Origin: a virus
Taxonomy: Duplodnaviria > Heunggongvirae > Uroviricota > Caudoviricetes
IMG/VR virus record: IMGVR_UViG_2698536672_000013
Strand: one strand, 5' to 3'
DNA: 10,212 nucleotides
Part shown: piece after piece, positions 1-10,212 of the stretch
How the letters are laid out: every line of letters starts with the position of its first letter
Numbering within the stretch: position 1 is the first letter of the stretch
Program-made: the position numbers and the translations under genes
Notes under the pieces: model-generated
What the model was told of the DNA's origin: nothing
What the model saw: the letters and a program-made list of their open reading frames with translations, nothing else
The model's database searches: none

Positions 1-486
1 TCATGCTGCCCTTACGATGTAATTAAACGCAATATTACGAGGACGAATGGTTACATAATTAACCCCATCACCTCGTGAAGGCCCTGCAAATGAAAAACAG
101 GAAAAGCCTGGTTGGTTAGAAACAATTTGGTCATAGTTATTGATTGAATGACCAGACCCAATGTCGAAATTACCTCCGTATTGAGAAAAACTTGTACCAT
201 CCTGTTCTGAAAGCAGGGTACGTCCCGCATCAATCCCGCGCCCATCATCCCAGCCACGAATAAACTCACCGCGTAAATCCAGCAGTTTCCCTGACGGGTA
301 TGCTTTGGCAAGGTTGGGATATTTCACTTTATCAAAGGCAGCACCATTGCATTTCAGCCAGCCGGTCGGCGGAGTAGTAGAAGGCCACGGAATCGGTACA
401 CCAACAGGCAATGCAGAGCCTTTCCCCAAACCAACGTTTTCGTCTTTATCCCTACCTATACCAACTATGTATTTTTCACGAAACAA
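1..486 (-). CDS. Phage tail fibre protein, variable C-terminal cassette; partial (continues past the left window edge) and apparently silent in this orientation
   Basis: The minus-strand frame is open from 486 to 1. The translation carries the tail-fibre junction motif shared by P2 H, Mu S, P1 S and lambda Stf (PVGVPIPWP...PTGWLKCNGAAF...YPNLAKAY...LDLRGEFIRGWDDGRGID). The frame opens with TTG, not ATG, has no Shine-Dalgarno, and begins right at the gix-like site, as expected for a cassette expressed only after fusion to a constant N-terminal part. Confidence 0.6.
   Translation of the reverse strand: MFREKYIVGIGRDKDENVGLGKGSALPVGVPIPWPSTTPPTGWLKCNGAAFDKVKYPNLAKAYPSGKLLDLRGEFIRGWDDGRGIDAGRTLLSEQDGTSFSQYGGNFDIGSGHSINNYDQIVSNQPGFSCFSFAGPSRGDGVNYVTIRPRNIAFNYIVRAA
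421..446. other. Candidate Gin/Hin-family inversion crossover site (gix/hix/cix-like, 26 bp)
   Basis: TTTCCCCAAACC-AA-CGTTTTCGTCTT: an imperfect dyad with the AAACC NN GTTT core typical of gix/hix sites as I recall them. It lies about 55 bp upstream of the invertase start and inside the tail-fibre reading frame, as in Mu G, P1 C and e14 P. The left half matches my remembered consensus well, the right half poorly. Confidence 0.45.
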
Positions 487-500
487 AGAGGATGTTTTTT

Positions 501-1100
501 ATGCAAATTGGCTATATTCGTGTGTCAACAAATGACCAGAACACGGATTTACAACGCAATGCACTGAACTGCGCAGGATGTGAACTGATTTTTGAAGATA
601 AAATCAGCGGAACGAAATCAGCCAGACCGGGATTGAAAAAACTGCTCAGAACGCTATCAGAAGGAGATACGCTGGTTGTCTGGAAGCTGGACAGACTGGG
701 CAGAAGTATGAAACACCTGATCACGCTTATTGAGGAATTGCGGGAAAAAGGTGTTAATTTCCGTAGTCTGACGGACAGCATTGACACATCAACACCCATG
801 GGGCGTTTCTTTTTTCACGTCATGGGGGCTTTAGCCGAAATGGAACGTGAATTAATTGTAGAGCGTACACTGGCCGGGCTGGCAGCAGCACGCGCACAAG
901 GACGCATTGGCGGACGTCGCCCGAAGTTGACAAAAGAACAACACGAGCAAATAGCGAGGCTGATTAAAAACGGTCATGACAGGAAACAACTGGCGATCAT
1001 TTACGACATCGGCATATCGACGATTTATCGTTATCACCCTGTAGGCGATATACAGGCTGAAGAAACAACCAGGCAGACTCAGGAAAATGAAAACCGCTAA
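501..1100 (+). CDS. Serine-recombinase DNA invertase (Gin/Hin/Pin/Cin family)
   Basis: The N-terminus MQIGYIRVSTNDQNTDLQ contains the catalytic serine motif. Further family hallmarks are LVVWKLDRLGRS, FFHVMGALAEMERELI.ERT and a C-terminal helix-turn-helix (KQLAIIYDIGISTIYRY). ATG 501 is preceded by AAGAGGA at 486-492. The ORF-track start at 411 is an in-frame upstream extension without an RBS. Confidence 0.93.
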   Translation: MQIGYIRVSTNDQNTDLQRNALNCAGCELIFEDKISGTKSARPGLKKLLRTLSEGDTLVVWKLDRLGRSMKHLITLIEELREKGVNFRSLTDSIDTSTPMGRFFFHVMGALAEMERELIVERTLAGLAAARAQGRIGGRRPKLTKEQHEQIARLIKNGHDRKQLAIIYDIGISTIYRYHPVGDIQAEETTRQTQENENR

Positions 1101-1126
1101 TCTGACCATTAGCGGTTTTGCGTTAA

Positions 1127-1621
1127 TCAAAACAGCCCTTTAACGGAGCTGGCCGCGCTGTTAAGGGATGATGTGACCTTATCTTTGAAGCCGGACAGCA
1201 TATCACTGAACGATGAGGATTGCAGGCGCTCCCGCAAATCCTCATCACAGCGTTCAAGAGTCAGTGAAAATTCTATCTTTTTCGCCTTACCGTAGCGATC
1301 AAACTCGGAGCGGGTCGTATTCGTTCCGGTCAGGACATACATGCCGTAAATCTGCCCGACACCATCAATCAGAGGCCAGGGGCGTCCTGTATATGCCTGC
1401 GTGGTCAGCAACGAAAGCGACACTTCGCCACCTGTAATTTCAGGATAAAGCACACCAGAAAGAACGATGCGATCATCGCCTGCCCCGATATACTGCCAGC
1501 TTGCTGAACGGTTAACGCGTTCATTTTTCACATGCCGCCAGCTTTTGTTTTGCTGTAACTGCTGATGCGGCAACGTGCGCAGCTCAAAAACAAACATGCC
1601 ATAGATCATCATCATGGCCAT
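1127..1621 (-). CDS. U: P2 gpU-like tail protein
   Basis: 164 aa. The N-terminus (M)MMIYGMFVFELRTLPHQQLQ...WRH resembles P2 gpU as I remember it. It sits immediately downstream of the tape-measure gene, with GAGGAG just upstream. Several Met codons (1621, 1615, 1612) could be the true start. Confidence 0.8.
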   Translation of the reverse strand: MAMMMIYGMFVFELRTLPHQQLQQNKSWRHVKNERVNRSASWQYIGAGDDRIVLSGVLYPEITGGEVSLSLLTTQAYTGRPWPLIDGVGQIYGMYVLTGTNTTRSEFDRYGKAKKIEFSLTLERCDEDLRERLQSSSFSDMLSGFKDKVTSSLNSAASSVKGLF

Positions 1622-1627
1622 GACTCC

Positions 1628-4444
1628 TCAATCTTTATCGTAAAAACTGCCACGCCCGGCACGGGCGCGCCGTTCCATCTCTGCCCTGACCATTTCACCG
1701 ACCAGTTTCGCCAGTTCGCGGGGATTCTGTGTAACAACGTTATGCAGATGAACATGAATTTCACCACCAAATCCGGAGGCAACAGGCTCCCGGTTACGGG
1801 AAGTTACAGGAACTGATGCCACTGGAGATCGTATGGCCTCCGCCACCGGGCGGGAGCTGGCCGCAACAACAGGGACCAGCGCCGGAGGCAGCGGAGCCGG
1901 GACCACGGGTGTGATATTAATTGCGGGGGCAGGCTTACTGGCCTGCGCAATCTTCCGCTCCTGCCACTCCCCACGAACAGCAAGTGCTCGGGGCAGGTTT
2001 TTAAAGACAATATCGCCGGGGCCAATGCGTTTTTTCGTCTCCTCAACCAGCTTACCTGTGTTATCAGCAATTTTGCTGAGTCTGCGTAGCGTCCCGGTAT
2101 TGCTGTCTGTGAGCGGTTTGTTGTCTTTGGGTTTATCACCTCCGGTGCCATTGCCATTTTCCACAGGCTTCGGCGGATTGATTTTCGCCAGGTCCCCTTG
2201 AAGTAAGGCAACCTTGTCCTGAAGAATGGCCGCACGCTGTGCGTCTTCGATTTTCTTTCTCGCCCTTTCCGCTTCATCCGGAAGCACACCGAGTTTTTCA
2301 AGTATCCACGCCAGCGTATCCAGTAGCATTTTTGCAGGTGTCAGAACAAGTTGTAACGCACCGCCAAGAACGTTACCGAATATCTCGCCAGCACTGGTAC
2401 ATTTATCCAGCGTTTCCTTGCTGGACTCCATCGGTGACAGCAGCGATTTAAACCAGTTAAACACCTGGCTGATCCCGCTTCCGATTGCGTCAAAAACAGG
2501 GCCAAACCGTTCAAAGGTTTCACGCAACGGGTTCAGCCTTTCCATAATCCCGCTGAACACCCCGGCAAAAAATGCCCTGATGGGATCCCAGTATTTCCAG
2601 ATAAGAACGGCAGCGCCGGCAAGCGCAGCCACGATAAGACTAACCGGACTGAACAGCGCCCCGATAGCTCCTCCCAGCAAAGAAACAGAACCCGTCACCA
2701 TTCCCCACAGCGCAGGCAACACCCTGATGACATTCATTGACCGGGTAAGAATGTCGAAACCAAGACGCAAGGTGGCCAGCTTCCCGTAAAGCACCCCAAT
2801 AACCAGCGACAACGAGCCAATCGTTGCAGTCATTGCCAGCAACGCACCGCCTGCTATCAGTAGCTGGCGCGTCAGTACCGGATGGGCCTGCGCCAGCGAG
2901 GTGATTTTTTCAAGCACCCGCGTGAGCCACTGCGTGACAGAACGCAGCGGACCGTCAACCAGATCACTGATGCGAATACGAAGACCTTCCCATGCGCTGT
3001 CGAGATTTTTCAGGTCTCCATCAAGATTATCGGCCATTACTTTTGCAACGCGATCGGCCTCTCCCCTTGCCCCCTGCAATTCTCTGGTCAGTTTTTGCAG
3101 TTCTCCTGAACCAGCCGCCGCAACAAGCGTCTGCAAACCAACGAACGCCTCTTCTCCGGCGATGTCCTTGAAGAAGGAGACCTGGTCCACCTGTCCGTAT
3201 TTTTGTGTCGCCTTATAGAGATCAAGCAGCACATCCTCCATCGGGCGCATTTTGCCTCTGGCGTCAGCAACTGACACCCCCAGCTCTTTCAGTGCATCAG
3301 CCGCAGCTTTTGGCGGTGATGCAAGGCGGGACAGACTTGCGCGCATGGCCGTACCAGCATCGCTTCCGCGAAGACCATTATTGGCAAGCATCCCGGCCAT
3401 GGCCGCCGCTTCTTCAAGACTGATACCAAGTTTTGCGGCAACCGGACCGGTATACTTCATGGTTTCGCCCAGCGCGCGTAAATCAGTATTGGTCCGGGTG
3501 AATGCTGCTGTCAGCGTATCGCCAACCCGGTCCATTTGATCGGCTGTCAGGTTGAACTGTGTGAGGATATTGGAGCCTATATCAGCCGTCTCGCCGAGTT
3601 CGACGCCACCTGCCAGCGCCATATTAAGAACACCGGGCAATGCGGCCTGAATGGCCTGCGGAGTAAAACCAGCCATTGCCAGAAAGCTCTGCCCACTGGC
3701 GGCATCACTCGCAGTAAACTGTGTTTCAGAACCAAGTTTTAACGCCTGCTCACGCAGCGCCTTAAACTGCGGGCTGTTTTTGTCGATTCGCGTCAGTGCC
3801 TGAACGCGGGACATCTCTTTGCCGAACCCGATCGCAGGCTGCAAAAAACGCCCGGCAGCATAGCCGCCAGCCGCTGCCGCACCAATTGCCAGCGCACCAC
3901 CTGTTTTCAGTTTTCCCGCGGTTTCCTGCGCGCGCGAATACCGCTCACGCGCCCGCGTTACACGCGCAAGCGCCTGCCGTTCGCGTTCAAGCTGGTTGTT
4001 GTACTGTTCGGTGCGTCTGATGGCCTGCTGGATGGTGTTATCGCTGCCTGTCAGGGAAATGCCGTGGCGTTTCAGCTCTCCGCCAAGTTCCCGCATTTTC
4101 TGAATTTCCCGTGTGCGCGATTCATTCAGGCGTTCAAGCCGGGTGCTTAACTGCTGCATCAGCTTTTGTTGTTTTTCGCTGAGCACTGTACCCGTGCGTT
4201 GTAACTGATTAAGGGCGTTAAGCTGGCGTCGTGCTTTCACGATGCCCGCATCCGCTTTACTGACAGCGTCACGGGCGCGCTCAAATGAACGCGCCTGACG
4301 CTCGAGATTTTTGATCGCCCCCTGCGTTCGCTGGATGGAGTCACCAAACTGCCCCATCAGGCGGCGGGCGTTTTCGGCAGGCCGGGTCAGCCTGTCAACG
4401 GCGCTGAAAGCGACCCGGATATCAAGAGTCTTCATTGTCTGCAT
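1628..4444 (-). CDS. T: Phage tail tape-measure protein (P2 gpT-like)
   Basis: 938 aa. The N-terminal half is Ala/Arg/Gln/Leu-rich and looks coiled-coil; the middle has long hydrophobic Gly/Ala-rich stretches (LLIAGGALLAMTATIGSLSLVIGVL...). Its position after E/E' and before U matches the conserved order. Confidence 0.88.
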   Translation of the reverse strand: MQTMKTLDIRVAFSAVDRLTRPAENARRLMGQFGDSIQRTQGAIKNLERQARSFERARDAVSKADAGIVKARRQLNALNQLQRTGTVLSEKQQKLMQQLSTRLERLNESRTREIQKMRELGGELKRHGISLTGSDNTIQQAIRRTEQYNNQLERERQALARVTRARERYSRAQETAGKLKTGGALAIGAAAAGGYAAGRFLQPAIGFGKEMSRVQALTRIDKNSPQFKALREQALKLGSETQFTASDAASGQSFLAMAGFTPQAIQAALPGVLNMALAGGVELGETADIGSNILTQFNLTADQMDRVGDTLTAAFTRTNTDLRALGETMKYTGPVAAKLGISLEEAAAMAGMLANNGLRGSDAGTAMRASLSRLASPPKAAADALKELGVSVADARGKMRPMEDVLLDLYKATQKYGQVDQVSFFKDIAGEEAFVGLQTLVAAAGSGELQKLTRELQGARGEADRVAKVMADNLDGDLKNLDSAWEGLRIRISDLVDGPLRSVTQWLTRVLEKITSLAQAHPVLTRQLLIAGGALLAMTATIGSLSLVIGVLYGKLATLRLGFDILTRSMNVIRVLPALWGMVTGSVSLLGGAIGALFSPVSLIVAALAGAAVLIWKYWDPIRAFFAGVFSGIMERLNPLRETFERFGPVFDAIGSGISQVFNWFKSLLSPMESSKETLDKCTSAGEIFGNVLGGALQLVLTPAKMLLDTLAWILEKLGVLPDEAERARKKIEDAQRAAILQDKVALLQGDLAKINPPKPVENGNGTGGDKPKDNKPLTDSNTGTLRRLSKIADNTGKLVEETKKRIGPGDIVFKNLPRALAVRGEWQERKIAQASKPAPAINITPVVPAPLPPALVPVVAASSRPVAEAIRSPVASVPVTSRNREPVASGFGGEIHVHLHNVVTQNPRELAKLVGEMVRAEMERRARAGRGSFYDKD

Positions 4445-4960
4445 TCCCGCTGCGAAGTGCCGCCCGCTCGCGCCAGCTAACCACTTCGCCGGGCGTCATC
4501 ATGAAGATTTCGGCGGGCGACCAGTTAAAAATGGCGGCAATATCCGCCACCAGATCTTCGATGTGCTCAAAGCACACCAGGGTGATTACGCTGCCGTCTC
4601 CTGCACGCTCTTCGCGCCAGAGTCTGGCTCGCTCATAAAATTTACAGCCACAGCGCACAACTGAATAAAATCGCGTGACGACATTTTTTTAATCATCACT
4701 TCATCCAGTCGTGGCGAGGTCACGCGAGGCAACAGCGTGAACATGGTATCCGCTTTCAGATTCAGCACATCAGACAGAGACAGACCACGCAGGGATCCAG
4801 CCTGTTCAATAGCCCCGGTGATCTCCACATATGTGATTTTTTCGGCACCACGCTCAATTGGCCGGGAAAGTTTTACACCACGTTCGACAGCCATATCCTC
4901 ACCTGACGTCACATCATCCGCTACGGTGTTATTCCGGGTTTCAGTATCGATATCTTTCAT
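4422..4960 (-). CDS. E+E' tail assembly chaperone made by programmed -1 ribosomal frameshift (E N-terminus joined to the E' frame)
   Basis: The E frame contains ATT AAA AAA ATG (A7 run at 4684-4690, minus-strand sense). The -1 frame is open from 4688 to a stop at 4422-4424 and overlaps the T start. This matches the conserved frameshift in the chaperone pair upstream of the tape-measure gene (lambda G/GT, P2 E/E'). Confidence 0.5.
4586..4960 (-). CDS. E: Tail assembly chaperone (P2 gpE-like)
   Basis: 124 aa, acidic, located between the tube and tape-measure genes. AAGGAG lies 7 nt upstream of ATG 4960. Confidence 0.8.
   Translation of the reverse strand: MKDIDTETRNNTVADDVTSGEDMAVERGVKLSRPIERGAEKITYVEITGAIEQAGSLRGLSLSDVLNLKADTMFTLLPRVTSPRLDEVMIKKMSSRDFIQLCAVAVNFMSEPDSGAKSVQETAA
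4684..4690 (-). other. Candidate slippery site (A7) for the E/E' -1 frameshift
   Basis: Seven consecutive A on the coding (minus) strand, at the point where the -1 frame becomes open, directly after a TAA in that frame. Confidence 0.45.
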
Positions 4961-5015
4961 CAGTTGTCTCCTTTTCAGTCAGAGGCGACGCACTGCGCCG
5001 CCTGCATATTACTTA

Positions 5016-5528
5016 TCAGCCAAGCCCAAGCGCGGAACGAATGCGGTCAGGCACAATGTCCTTGCCGTCCTTCCGGTAGATGTGGTTCAACAGGTCGATT
5101 TCCCACAGCGGGCGATCGTTAACGCTCAGCTTGTAGTAGGTGTTTTTGACAGCGTAAGTGTGTGATGTGGCTTCGCCCTGTTTGGCCTCCCCCATATCAA
5201 TTTCCGTCACACGCCCGCGCATCTCGATTTCATACAGATCGCTTTCTGCATCGGTGTAGTATTCACCCGCAAAACGCAGCAGCGTGCCGTCAATCGTGCC
5301 GCCATATTTAAGGAACAGCGCACGAACAGCTCCCCCCATGACAAAACTCGCATCAAGCGCGGAGTCGTCCAGACCGAGATCAATACTTACCGCCCCCATC
5401 ATGCCACCACCACGATAGCTGTCGGTTTTGCGCGTCAGTTTGGGTGGCGTGACGGACGTCACCTTACCCACTTCGTTTTCACCATCCACAAACAGCGTAA
5501 AAAAGCGAAGATGTTTTGGTACAGCCAT
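5016..5528 (-). CDS. FII: Contractile tail tube protein (P2 FII-like)
   Basis: 170 aa. MAVPKHLRFF...SVTPPKLTRKTDSYRGGGMMG...LRFAGEY...EIEMRGRVTEIDMGEAKQGE resembles P2 FII. The start overlaps the FI stop (TGATG). Confidence 0.9.
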   Translation of the reverse strand: MAVPKHLRFFTLFVDGENEVGKVTSVTPPKLTRKTDSYRGGGMMGAVSIDLGLDDSALDASFVMGGAVRALFLKYGGTIDGTLLRFAGEYYTDAESDLYEIEMRGRVTEIDMGEAKQGEATSHTYAVKNTYYKLSVNDRPLWEIDLLNHIYRKDGKDIVPDRIRSALGLG

Positions 5529-6712
5529 CAGGCACCTCCCAGCACCGCAAATGCGGGACCAAAGAATTCATCAGTAAACGACTGGTAAAGCTCCATGTCT
5601 TCCAGCGGCGGAACGGGCGTATATTTGTAGCGAATACGCACACGCCCCTGACGTAAATTCATGGTGCTGTTATCCACGATGTCATACCAGCACTCCGCGC
5701 CAATCAGTTTCCCGGCAGTAACCAGTGAATCCAGTTTTGCCCTGATGGCACTGATAACATCCTTCACGTTCGCAGGCGTCAGTGGACTGTCGATGGTTTC
5801 AAACTGCGCTTCCGCAATTGAATCAGCCAGCACCTGTGCGGTTCGGGTATACACCTCAAAGATGTAGGCGTTCGTTTCCGGTGTGCGGTTGCCCCAGAAG
5901 CGGAGCCCGTTGCGACGAATAATGGTCGTGATTTCTTTGTTGTTGAGGCTGTTGGCATCGCTGTCTTCGGCCTGCAACGACCAGAACACATGCCTGGACA
6001 TCCCCAGCACATTTTTAACCGGAACGTTGGACAGTGATTTGTGCCATCCCTGCTCATGGTCAATGTACGCACGAAGGCCGCACGCATAGGCAGGCGCGGG
6101 GAACGTTTCGTTTTTGCCACTTTTCGGGTTGTAGGCGATGAAGTCAGGCCATAAGAGCATCACCTCACGTTCGTTGAATTTCTGGCGGTAGGTAATCGCC
6201 TCAGCCATCGTGTTACAACCATGACATGCGGCATACACAAACGCGCGCAGTTTACCCGCAATCACGCACAGGGATTTTGTCACCGCCTCCGTGTCCAGCT
6301 CCGGCGCGGCCAGAATACGCGGACGGTATCCGATGCTTTCATCCTGCTCTGCAACAAGCAGCGCATACATCCCCGTATAGCTGCCGTCAGATTCAGAACC
6401 ACCGATAACCAGTTGATCCTGCGTCTTTCCGTTTTCTTCTTTGTGTTCAGCCACGCGAACGACGATCACCTTTGTGCTCACCTGGTCTGCGATGGCCTTA
6501 AGCGCACGATAAAGCGTCCCCGTTGTCCCGCATTTTCCCAGCACGTCATTGACGCGGGTCAGCAGTGTGGGCTTGTTCAGCGGGAACAGCTTCGCGTCCG
6601 CATCATCCGCCGTTGCCACGATACCGATAACGCTGGAATCAACATCGTTAATCGCTGTTACCAGGTCGGTACTTTCCGTAACACGGGCACCATGAAAACG
6701 AGTTTCACTCAT
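5528..6712 (-). CDS. FI: Contractile tail sheath protein (P2 FI-like)
   Basis: 394 aa. The N-terminus (...ATADDADAKLFPLNKPTLLTRVNDV...GTLYRALKAIADQ) and the length match P2 FI as I remember it. AAGGGG lies 8 nt upstream of ATG 6712. Confidence 0.92.
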   Translation of the reverse strand: MSETRFHGARVTESTDLVTAINDVDSSVIGIVATADDADAKLFPLNKPTLLTRVNDVLGKCGTTGTLYRALKAIADQVSTKVIVVRVAEHKEENGKTQDQLVIGGSESDGSYTGMYALLVAEQDESIGYRPRILAAPELDTEAVTKSLCVIAGKLRAFVYAACHGCNTMAEAITYRQKFNEREVMLLWPDFIAYNPKSGKNETFPAPAYACGLRAYIDHEQGWHKSLSNVPVKNVLGMSRHVFWSLQAEDSDANSLNNKEITTIIRRNGLRFWGNRTPETNAYIFEVYTRTAQVLADSIAEAQFETIDSPLTPANVKDVISAIRAKLDSLVTAGKLIGAECWYDIVDNSTMNLRQGRVRIRYKYTPVPPLEDMELYQSFTDEFFGPAFAVLGGA

Positions 6713-6869: not shown

Positions 6870-7979
6870 ATGACCGACACCACCATGCAATTGCTCAGTC
6901 AGGGCACAGACCCCGTAAAAATGCCGGATTTTGATATTCTCGCGGAGGGTAAAACGCTGTCAGGCGTGGCAGAGCGCCTGATGAGCCTGTCACTGACCGA
7001 CAACCGGGGATTTGACGCGGACCAGCTCACCATCACGCTGGATGATGCGGATGGTCAGTTGCAGCTACCGCCACGGGGCGCGCGCCTGACGGTTCTCATT
7101 GGCTGGAAAGGAGAACCGCTGACAGAAAAAGGCACTTACATTGTTGATGAAATCGCTCACGAAGGACCGCCGGACAGGCTGACTGTTTCAGCCAGAAGCG
7201 CAGATTTTCGGGATGAATTTAACGTTAAACGTGAGGTGTCCTGGCATGATGTGACCGTTGAGCGTGTGGTATCCGCCATCGCTCATCGGTACGGTCTGAA
7301 ACCGCAAATCAGCGAAATGCTGATGGATATCGAAATCGACCACGCCGACCAGACCGAAGAAAGCGACATGTCCTTTCTTACGCGCATGGCGGAAATGCTG
7401 GGCGCAATCACCACGGTAAAAAGCGGTAATCTGTTATTCATTATGCCAGGCGGTGGCGTGAACGCACAGGGCCAGCCGTTGCCCTCGTTCGCCATCACGC
7501 GCGGCAGTGGCGATCGCCATCAGTTCCGCATTGCTGACCGCGAAGCGTATACGGGGGTACGCGCTTACTGGCTTGATCTTAATTACGGGAAAAAGAAAAA
7601 AGTCAGCGTGAAACGCCGTAAACCGCCAAAACCCAAAAAGGAGAAAAGCAGCAGCCGTGAAGGTGATTATATGGAAGGCGCGGAAGGCAATGTGTTTGTG
7701 TTACGCAAGACTTATCAGAACGAGCAGGCAGCAAGACGCGCAGCGGCGGCAAAGTGGCAGCAGCTACAACGCGGAGCCGCATCATTCTCCATCACGCTGG
7801 CATGTGGTCGTGCAGAACTCTACCCCGAAATGCATGGCACGGTAACAGGATTTAAAAGCGAGATTGATAATCAGGACTGGATTATTGCAAAAGCCGAGCA
7901 CACCATCGATAACAGCGGCTTTACCACGCAGCTTGAGCTTGAGGCAAAAATCCCGGAATGGATAGCAGAAACAGAGTGA
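6870..7979 (+). CDS. D: P2 gpD-like tail protein (late gene D)
   Basis: LSLTDNRGFDADQL, SARSADFR, SWHD, FLTRMAE, a Lys/Pro-rich linker (KKKKVSVKRRKPPKPKKEK) and the C-terminal block FSITLACGRAELYPE...GFTTQLELE match the gpD pattern. GGGAGGGAG precedes ATG 6870. The ORF-track start at 6738 is an unlikely upstream extension; ATG 6885 is an alternative start. Confidence 0.85.
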   Translation: MTDTTMQLLSQGTDPVKMPDFDILAEGKTLSGVAERLMSLSLTDNRGFDADQLTITLDDADGQLQLPPRGARLTVLIGWKGEPLTEKGTYIVDEIAHEGPPDRLTVSARSADFRDEFNVKREVSWHDVTVERVVSAIAHRYGLKPQISEMLMDIEIDHADQTEESDMSFLTRMAEMLGAITTVKSGNLLFIMPGGGVNAQGQPLPSFAITRGSGDRHQFRIADREAYTGVRAYWLDLNYGKKKKVSVKRRKPPKPKKEKSSSREGDYMEGAEGNVFVLRKTYQNEQAARRAAAAKWQQLQRGAASFSITLACGRAELYPEMHGTVTGFKSEIDNQDWIIAKAEHTIDNSGFTTQLELEAKIPEWIAETE

Positions 7980-8021
7980 GCAACTTAGAATAGCAGCAGC
8001 ACCACGTTAAGGGAGGTCGCT

Positions 8022-8282
8022 ATGTTCCGTTGTCCGCTTTGTGGCGCATCTGCCCGTATCCGCACCAGTCGTCCGGAAAATGATTCAAACACCGTGCGGC
8101 AAAAGTATTACCAGTGTAACAACCTGGAATGCGGCGTATGCTTCTCAACACTGGAAGCTTTCCATAAATTCACATCAAAACACACCTCCGGCGTTCACTC
8201 TTCAGAAGGTATCCCGTGGCATGAGCTGCCAGCTTCACACAGGGGAAACAATCAGATGAGTTTGCCTTTACCTCAGAATTAA
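8022..8282 (+). CDS. ogr: Ogr/Delta-family zinc-finger late transcription activator
   Basis: MFRCPLCGASARIRTSR...YYQCNNLECG gives the C-x2-C...C-x4-C pattern and N-terminal similarity to P2 Ogr (MFHCPLC...). AAGGGAGG precedes ATG 8022. At 86 aa it is longer than P2 Ogr (72 aa). Confidence 0.88.
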   Translation: MFRCPLCGASARIRTSRPENDSNTVRQKYYQCNNLECGVCFSTLEAFHKFTSKHTSGVHSSEGIPWHELPASHRGNNQMSLPLPQN

Positions 8283-8473: not shown

Positions 8474-8614
8474 ATGTCGCAAAAATCGCTTACGGCCATC
8501 ACGTTCTGCGTGACGGTAATCCTCATCATCTGGATGCTACACGGTTCGCTGTGTGAAATACGGATGAGCTTCTGGGGAGCGGAGTTTGCGGCGTTCTTAC
8601 AGTGTAAGCAGTAA
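8474..8614 (+). CDS. Hok/Gef-family type I toxin (small membrane peptide), 46 aa
   Basis: Translation MSQKSLTAITFCVTVILIIWMLHGSLCEIRMSFWGAEFAAFLQCKQ: an N-terminal hydrophobic helix followed by the SLCE(I/L) and AAFL.C motifs seen in HokA-like peptides. AAGGAG lies 9 nt upstream of the ATG. It is absent from the ORF track only because it is shorter than 60 aa. Confidence 0.65.
   Translation: MSQKSLTAITFCVTVILIIWMLHGSLCEIRMSFWGAEFAAFLQCKQ

Positions 8615-8919: not shown

Positions 8920-10212
<1,293 letters not shown>

Follow-up and report, generated by a model that had tools for sequence, protein, structure and literature searches.

When a DNA invertase gene adjoins a tail-fibre frame that has no start codon of its own, at the edge of a P2-like tail cluster, the question arises of whether the two belong to a working switch of the receptor-binding tip and, if so, to which kind of switch. 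This question is raised by IMG/VR virus record IMGVR_UViG_2698536672_000013, a stretch of 10,212 nt read on one strand and called “the window” throughout, in which an invertase gene (501-1100) stands next to a 26-bp crossover site (421-446) and a tail-fibre C-terminal cassette. We consider it highly probable that the window is the invertase-proximal end of an active, multi-cassette, invertase-driven tail-fibre tip switch, carried by a P88-type prophage inserted at serS. The invertase, one site, and one silent cassette are seen in the window itself; a second site is seen at the end of the source contig; and the array, together with an exact inversion, is seen in relatives. The gene layout was obtained by listing the open reading frames (ORFs) and by Pfam scans, and 14 related loci were fetched, both from complete E. 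coli genomes carrying the module and from public assemblies encoding an identical invertase.

The predicted product of 501-1100 is a serine DNA invertase of the Gin/Hin/Cin/Pin (Din) family. The frame is intact and codes for 199 aa from the ATG at 501, which is preceded by GAGG (488-491) as ribosome-binding site, and the protein matches both the Resolvase (PF00239, 1.5e-51) and the HTH_7 (PF02796, 1.4e-12) domains. Residues 1-185 align with the Mu Gin structures 4m6f and 3uj3 (E = 3e-91), with the catalytic Ser9 aligned to Ser9 of Gin. Identity reaches 71.5% with Mu Gin, 81.5% with the P88 invertase, and 198/199 residues with the invertase of E2348/69, and the exact protein is present in 7,224 indexed blocks of a public assembly collection. 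The P88 invertase (L015 26977-27564) looks like a mosaic, its first two thirds being nearly identical to Mu Gin and its last third matching the window invertase. Between the crossover site and the invertase start there is also a sequence, TGTATTTTTCACGAAACA (468-485), shaped like an Ogr element. It is the one match in the window to the P2 late-promoter element TGT-N12-ACA, which is chance level (2.35 expected), and it is not claimed here as a feature.

The crossover site ends 54 nt ahead of the invertase ATG, aligns with Mu gixR, which holds the corresponding place beside gin, and falls within the fibre frame 486-1. It holds the sole AAACCNNNGTTT core of the window, one being found against 0.09 expected, with at least one core in 17 of 200 shuffles. 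Because this chance statistic for the core alone is modest, more weight belongs to the recurrence of the site in the fetched relatives, whose terminal site matches it at 24-25 of 26 positions (1-2 differences) and stands next to the invertase wherever a collar-type cassette is found there, with related copies at every other cassette boundary. The endpoints of the E2348/69 inversion described below are the central TT of this same terminal site. No inverted partner site was found inside the window. The surrounding minus-strand frame is open, contains not a single methionine codon, ends with a TGA stop at 3-1, and matches the Phage Tail Collar domain (PF07484, 2.4e-11). A sigma-70 scan of positions 1-1700 gave no promoter-like site for the cassette, and its orthologues in relatives are annotated by the genome pipeline as “incomplete; missing N-terminus”. 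The cassette is of the kind that we call type A, which is silent, in a terminal or internal place, in L001, L005, L006, L007, L011, and L016, and is fused to H, the expressed fibre gene, in L018. That the window cassette is a silent copy of an alternative fibre C-terminus is supported by these observations. Much of an earlier, sequence-only reading of this DNA is borne out in the same way: it had seen a Gin/Hin-family invertase beside a gix-like dyad at 421-446, had located that dyad inside a fibre C-terminal frame lacking an ATG, had taken the visible cassette as the silent one of a host-range switch, and had recognized a P2-like tail module, of which gpU, the tape measure, E/E′, FII, FI, D, and Ogr are all present.

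The window is cut at its left edge inside a second site. The source contig, CVTE01000024.1 (L014; draft assembly GCA_001499595.1), is the one public contig that contains the tape-measure protein of the window. Beyond position 1 it has just 12 more nt before its end, giving AAACCAACGTTT|TCATGC across the window edge; AAACCAACGTTT plus window positions 1-7 make up a second crossover site in direct orientation relative to 421-446, and the same 23 nt are an internal site in the relative L001 (14989-15011). The window cassette is bounded by two sites, and its stop codon sits in the outer one. Because this second, directly oriented site stands at the contig end, we read the locus as one end of a multi-cassette array and not as a simple two-site segment of the Mu G kind. 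An assembly break within a repeated, invertible array is the expected outcome.

Such arrays are seen in full in the relatives. The module is carried by 612 of 5,426 complete E. coli genomes (~11%), and the intact relatives have 2-8 sites in total, namely one in the expressed H, one terminal, and 0-6 internal. The sequence-only reading had asked for an inverted partner 2-4 kb to the left, inside a plus-strand fibre gene and with one or two chaperone genes in between. All intact relatives that were fetched have such a partner in the H site, which is inverted relative to the terminal site, sits in a fibre gene on the plus strand at a distance of 1.6-4.4 kb, and is separated from it by one tfa gene. 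The H site reads TTCTTGATTACC TT GGTTTGGGGGAA in every intact locus; the terminal site beside the invertase reads AA(A/G)ACGAAAACG TT GGTTT... in every locus with collar-type cassettes; and the internal sites read (A/C)G(C/T)ATGAAAACG TT GGTTT..., with the TGA of the preceding cassette included in their outer half. Common to all of them are the central TT and the inner half GGTTT(G/A)GG(G/A)GAA, which encodes GLGEG. The cassettes, of about 440-545 bp each, are arranged head to tail around one gene for tail-fibre assembly, tfa, and both plus and minus orientations occur among them. Their heads are inverted repeats of 220-290 nt with 82-93% identity, and their variable C-terminal halves define the types A to G and a few others. 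The same types recur across strains fused to H, silent in plus, silent in minus, internal, or terminal, with up to eight sites in the prophage of L007 and at least seven collar-tip types overall in the fetched loci. In strain CP024134 (L003 8587-9468), an insertion sequence truncates the array, so that the invertase, one cassette, and part of a second are left, H and all late genes leftward are gone, and the switch is dead.

The single tfa gene always follows cassette type C immediately, the stop of the one and the start of the other overlapping as TAATG (L001 13379-13990; L016 5896-6507; L018 5228-5839). In E2348/69, the predominant state (90% forward, PMC4272514 Table S1) has tfa antisense to the H-A fusion that is expressed. 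That there is one tfa per array, tied to type C and antisense in the predominant state, suggests that most collar tips may not need the tfa chaperone.

The clearest evidence that this kind of array flips comes from E2348/69, two assemblies of which, NC_011601.1 and CP059840.2, differ only at the fibre locus. The difference is a 2,002-bp exact reverse complement that runs from the central TT of the H site to that of the terminal site, with 0 mismatches inside and an identical 1 kb flank on each side. In NC_011601.1, the order is H fused to A, followed by B (plus), tfa (minus), and C (minus), and in CP059840.2 it is H fused to C, followed by tfa (plus), B (minus), and A (minus) beside the invertase. 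The repeats at the two ends, ~270 nt long and 80% identical, diverge 37 nt from the central TT, so that the crossover must lie within those first 37 nt; this restriction argues for site-specific and not general homologous exchange. In parallel, Goldberg et al. 2014 (PMC4272514) described the E2348/69 locus, by sequencing and by polymerase chain reaction (PCR), as a three-repeat “shufflon” with three alternative C-termini and four coexisting variants, and listed in their Table S1 the inversions NC_011601.1 1891695-1893703 and 1892127-1893703. Coordinate 1891695 of that table is exactly the H site located here. The junction that the window cassette would form is also found in nature, given that a synthetic query made of 300 nt of the H constant part and the window cassette, joined at the central TT, has a one-piece match in 28 complete genomes. 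The clonal isolates U13A and U14A, whose prophage at serS is 98% identical to the window, also carry the segment in opposite orientations. This pair was dropped as a clean case of site-specific inversion owing to eight unexpected junction bases and is kept as supporting evidence only, E2348/69 being the clean case.

The mechanism that we propose would work as follows. By homology with Gin and Hin, the invertase would bind the 26-bp sites as dimers, one site lying left of the window in the expressed H gene, where the constant part gives way to the variable part, and the others heading each silent cassette. Again by homology, an inverted pair of sites would be synapsed on an enhancer occupied by Fis, cleavage would take place at the central dinucleotide, and the strands would be exchanged by subunit rotation. 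Pairing of the H site with any oppositely oriented site would flip the intervening DNA and join the H constant part in frame to a different collar-domain tip of ~145-180 residues, and the receptor-binding tip would change. The genome from which the window comes most likely has such an H site as well, and the inversion presumably takes place there: one flip that pairs the H site with 421-446 would have the window cassette expressed as ...DYL|GLGKGSALPVGVPIPWPS...IVRAA*, with DYL joined to GLGKGSALPVG.... The restriction to inverted sites known from the homologous systems would protect the tandem, direct-repeat cassettes from deletion. The collar domain of the tips and the analogy with Mu, P1, and carotovoricin suggest that the exchange would alter the host range.

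By homology with Gin and Hin, recombination is likely to depend on Fis and on an enhancer inside the invertase gene, and the sequence-only reading had pointed to the 5′ part of this gene as the place to look. Two 15-mers there are candidate Fis sites: TGTCAACAAATGACC and GCGCAGGATGTGAAC both match Mu gin at 14/15 positions; their centres are 47 bp apart, and the first lies ~96 bp from the centre of the crossover site. The hin enhancer has 47 bp between its Fis sites and 99 bp to its crossover site (PMC3798978). In the same line, the invertase carries K46, K47, R50, Q150, R153, and L154, which correspond to Hin positions 47, 48, 51, 151, 154, and 155 (the Hin numbering being one higher); in Hin, K47, R/K48, R/K51, Q151, R154, and L155 are the Fis/enhancer contacts, kept in invertases and not in resolvases (McLean et al., PMC3798978).

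We suggest keeping several points in mind that weigh against this reading of the window. The H gene and the H site lie outside the window, where the source contig stops, and the switch could be truncated here. The site itself carries a G-to-A change at base 423, giving GGGGAAA (in GGTTTGGGGAAA) where the sites of all fetched relatives have GGGGGAA, GGAGAA, or GGGAGAA, and turning GLGEG into GLGKG; the 71-mer at 400-470 that contains it has no identical copy in any complete E. coli genome. Upstream of the invertase, no sigma-70-like promoter was found in the scan of 1-1700. The case for the enhancer is one of sequence similarity, in the Mu-gin-like 15-mers and their hin-like spacing, and the accompanying excess of synonymous-codon conservation is not significant (10/20 vs. 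34/107, p = 0.096). Finally, the right junction in U13A/U14A is not a clean single-crossover product, given that ~37 nt beside the terminal site (L012 6190-6227 vs. L013) are alike in both isolates and depart from the expected product at 8 positions; possible reasons are gene conversion, a second event, or a mixed culture whose consensus was polished.

The first of these points, with the base change unique to the window site, leads to the alternative that survives best, namely that the switch is a dead remnant in this genome, either because the H constant part and its site have been lost or interrupted or because the variant site is not recombined. The left partner is out of view past the contig end, and the truncated array of L003, where an insertion sequence left behind an invertase and one cassette, is a precedent of the same kind. 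We nevertheless regard a remnant as unlikely: the full-length invertase recurs without any difference in thousands of assemblies, the intact cassette has the same 144 codons as its counterparts in the relatives, the contig ends within a site core and not at an insertion-sequence boundary, and all other fetched prophages at serS have a complete array.

An active, invertase-driven switch also has to be set against inversion by RecA-dependent homologous exchange between the ~270-nt cassette heads, without the invertase. The heads are indeed inverted repeats of the length and identity given above, and the U13A/U14A junction is not explicable by a single exchange at the core. On the other hand, in E2348/69 the homology begins exactly at the central dinucleotide and the exchange took place within the first 37 nt from it; a Gin-family invertase adjoins the site in every fetched copy; and the minority fractions of 10-50% within single colonies (PMC4272514) would be far above what is usual for short repeats of 80-90% identity. 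Taken together, this makes homologous exchange a very improbable source of the inversions. The Gin-type enzyme could also serve elsewhere. Gin, Cin, Hin, and Pin can replace each other. In e14 and in a Mu-like prophage, the inverted repeats, AAACCTTGGTTTGGGAGAAGG (PMC4272514 Table S1), are almost the same as the sites here, so co-resident prophage invertases could act on each other's segments; yet that the invertase is kept mainly to act in trans on such segments or on host loci, with the adjacent cassette incidental, is the least credible of the alternatives, because site, cassette array, and invertase always travel together, site and gene are ~54-67 nt apart, a distance like that in Mu, the fibre array does invert, and an action in trans would add to the local role and not replace it.

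The invertase-driven switch, which we prefer to these alternatives, sits in a recognizable prophage. Because of nucleotide similarity and gene order, the window is assigned to the right end of a P88-type (Xuanwuvirus, Peduoviridae) P2-like prophage inserted beside serS: positions 507-2999 are 91.7% identical to phage P88 (NC_026014), the order of the invertase, U-T-E-FII-FI on the minus strand, and D on the plus strand is identical, and the identity over that stretch and the gene order agree with membership in Xuanwuvirus. The best nucleotide matches to the window among complete E. coli genomes are 96-98%, with none exact. The coordinates of all features are collected in the table.

Table. Features of the 10,212-nt window, with positions, strand, and the basis or details of each.
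Feature	Position	Strand	Basis or details
Outer 7 nt of second, internal crossover site (TCATGCT)	1..7	-	Includes the cassette's TGA stop (3-1); remainder just outside the window
Silent tail-fibre C-terminal cassette, type A	1..433	-	144 codons from crossover point to stop; collar domain; without own start codon or promoter
Fibre C-terminal frame, Phage Tail Collar domain	486-1	-	ORF and Pfam
Invertase-proximal (terminal) 26-bp crossover site TTTCCCCAAACCAACGTTTTCGTCTT	421..446	-	Minus strand AAGACGAAAACG TT GGTTTGGGGAAA; central dinucleotide 434-433
Spacer between crossover site and invertase gene	447..500	+	Includes GAGG 488-491; read from sequence
Resolvase + HTH_7 recombinase (invertase)	501-1100	+	ORF and Pfam
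Candidate Fis-dependent recombinational enhancer, two 15-mers centred at 530 and 578	523..585	+	Inside invertase gene (codons 8-29); similarity to Mu gin
Hairpin, 12 bp, between convergent invertase and gpU genes	1090..1119		AAAACCGCTAAT-GGTCAG-ATTAGCGGTTTT
gpU	1127-1621	-	Pfam
Tape measure gpT	1628-4444	-	Pfam
E/E′	about 4422-4960	-	Pfam
Tube protein FII	5016-5528	-	Pfam
Sheath protein FI	5528-6712	-	Pfam
gpD	6871-7979	+	Pfam; ribosome-binding site and ATG at 6871; 369-aa gpD annotated in relatives
Ogr	8022-8282	+	Pfam
Hok/Gef-like ORF	8474-8614	+	ORF/Pfam
serS	8920-10212	-	

Several features outside the switch deserve mention. The block of FI, FII, E/E′, T, and U (1127-6712) runs on the strand opposite to D and ogr (6871-8282) and, in the relatives, opposite to H. 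In P2, the FI-U, D, ogr, and H genes all run one way, and U overlaps D; in Fels-2 also, the FI-U genes are co-directional with H and D, whereas the block in the window is inverted. We considered whether this block could be a second programmed inversion and rejected the idea, since neither the window nor L001 has a gix-like core close to the FI/D junction, and all relatives as well as P88 show one orientation. Because the orientation is common to all of them and no gix-like site marks the junction, the inversion looks like a fixed rearrangement of this lineage, one that would give D its own start and presumably its own promoter. The hairpin between the convergent invertase and gpU genes is likely a two-way terminator. 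Within the block, a 124-aa ORF overlaps a 78-aa ORF with a Phage_P2_GpE match and runs into the start of the tape-measure gene (~4422-4960, minus strand), an overlap that we take to be the usual P2 E/E′ pair produced by programmed frameshifting. Just past ogr, at the prophage end, lies a 46-aa ORF of the Hok/Gef toxin type (8474-8614, plus strand), whose position is kept in relatives at several insertion sites. A Rfam scan of the entire window gave zero matches, and none therefore to an antisense RNA for this ORF.

In summary, the mechanism is supported, and the switch itself is already known, because an orthologous locus has been shown experimentally to flip. What may be undescribed is the size and variability of the cassette library, with as many as eight sites and no fewer than seven tip types, and the coupling of only one tip type to a chaperone gene. 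Provided that no formal description exists and that a chaperone is dispensable for the folding of most tips, the arrays could form the most extensive library of invertase-driven fibre tips known from E. coli prophages, a claim that we put forward only tentatively and that, if true, would make them a natural source of interchangeable, chaperone-free receptor-binding tips. The finding opens no long-standing question. Its practical value lies first in annotation, given that fragments labelled “phage tail protein” and a “recombinase family protein” are one working unit that changes the receptor-binding tip. Draft assemblies break at these sites, and two assemblies of a single strain may disagree here without either being wrong. 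The set of cassettes is also relevant to host-range prediction and to the engineering of phage and tailocin tips.

Among known systems, the closest is the E2348/69 shufflon, an orthologous locus with 94.8% DNA identity over window positions 1-2999, an invertase identical at all but one residue, a terminal site agreeing at 24/26 positions, a type A cassette, and the same gene order. It differs in having three sites and three cassettes and in lying next to ihfA and not serS, whereas the window has at least two invertase-side sites and one extra base change in its site. P88 shares the fibre, the invertase, and the U-T-E-FII-FI genes on the opposite strand followed by D, but it has a classical Mu-like pair, fibre tip and chaperone against chaperone′ and fibre tip′, without the collar-cassette array, and its fibre region gave no match to the sites of the collar arrays.

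The sequence-only reading had called the arrangement a switch in the style of Mu G or P1 C, which holds for the invertase, the site, and the silent C-terminus. In Mu, the silent S′ C-terminus on the minus strand, gixR, ~67 bp, and gin follow in the same order and orientation as here, and the site core and the candidate Fis blocks are conserved. Mu, however, has two sites, one segment, and a chaperone for each tip (S-U and S′-U′), in contrast to the tandem cassettes, the stop codon inside the next site, and the one chaperone gene of the present arrays. The strict Mu G/P1 C layout does not hold, because a directly oriented second site abuts the window cassette and the closest relatives have 3-8 sites and a single tfa tied to cassette C. 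The array is closer to a shufflon and to the Min system of p15B. In Min of p15B, and likewise in the P1 C segment with its enzyme Cin, several C-terminal segments of the fibre are shuffled by an invertase of the Din family via more than two crossover sites. PMC6906374 cites the Min multiple-inversion system. Such a layout, with more than two sites, both orientations, and several C-terminal segments, is found in the relatives, and the genome of the window shows only two sites of the same orientation. Min and P1 C belong to a P1-like plasmid replicon and to another fibre family, and the likeness drawn here is one of description and not of sequence.

The presence of a switch on a P2-like tail had also been thought notable, and this expectation has to be given up: P88 has the module, about one in nine complete E. 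coli genomes carries it (the count given above), and since Fels-2 (Felsduovirus), a P2-like phage, has H, G, G′, H′, and a DNA invertase ahead of its tail genes, such switches have long been known on phages of this kind, with the difference that the Fels-2 switch is of the two-set Mu style. A 2024 survey of P2-like phage hotspots likewise reports that invertases are frequent at this locus. Carotovoricin Er (Nguyen et al. 2001, as cited in PMC4272514) is alike in exchanging fibre C-termini by means of an invertase on a P2-like contractile tail, a likeness again of description and not of sequence; it is a headless bacteriocin of Pectobacterium, whereas the relatives of the window carry the full head and lysis genes.

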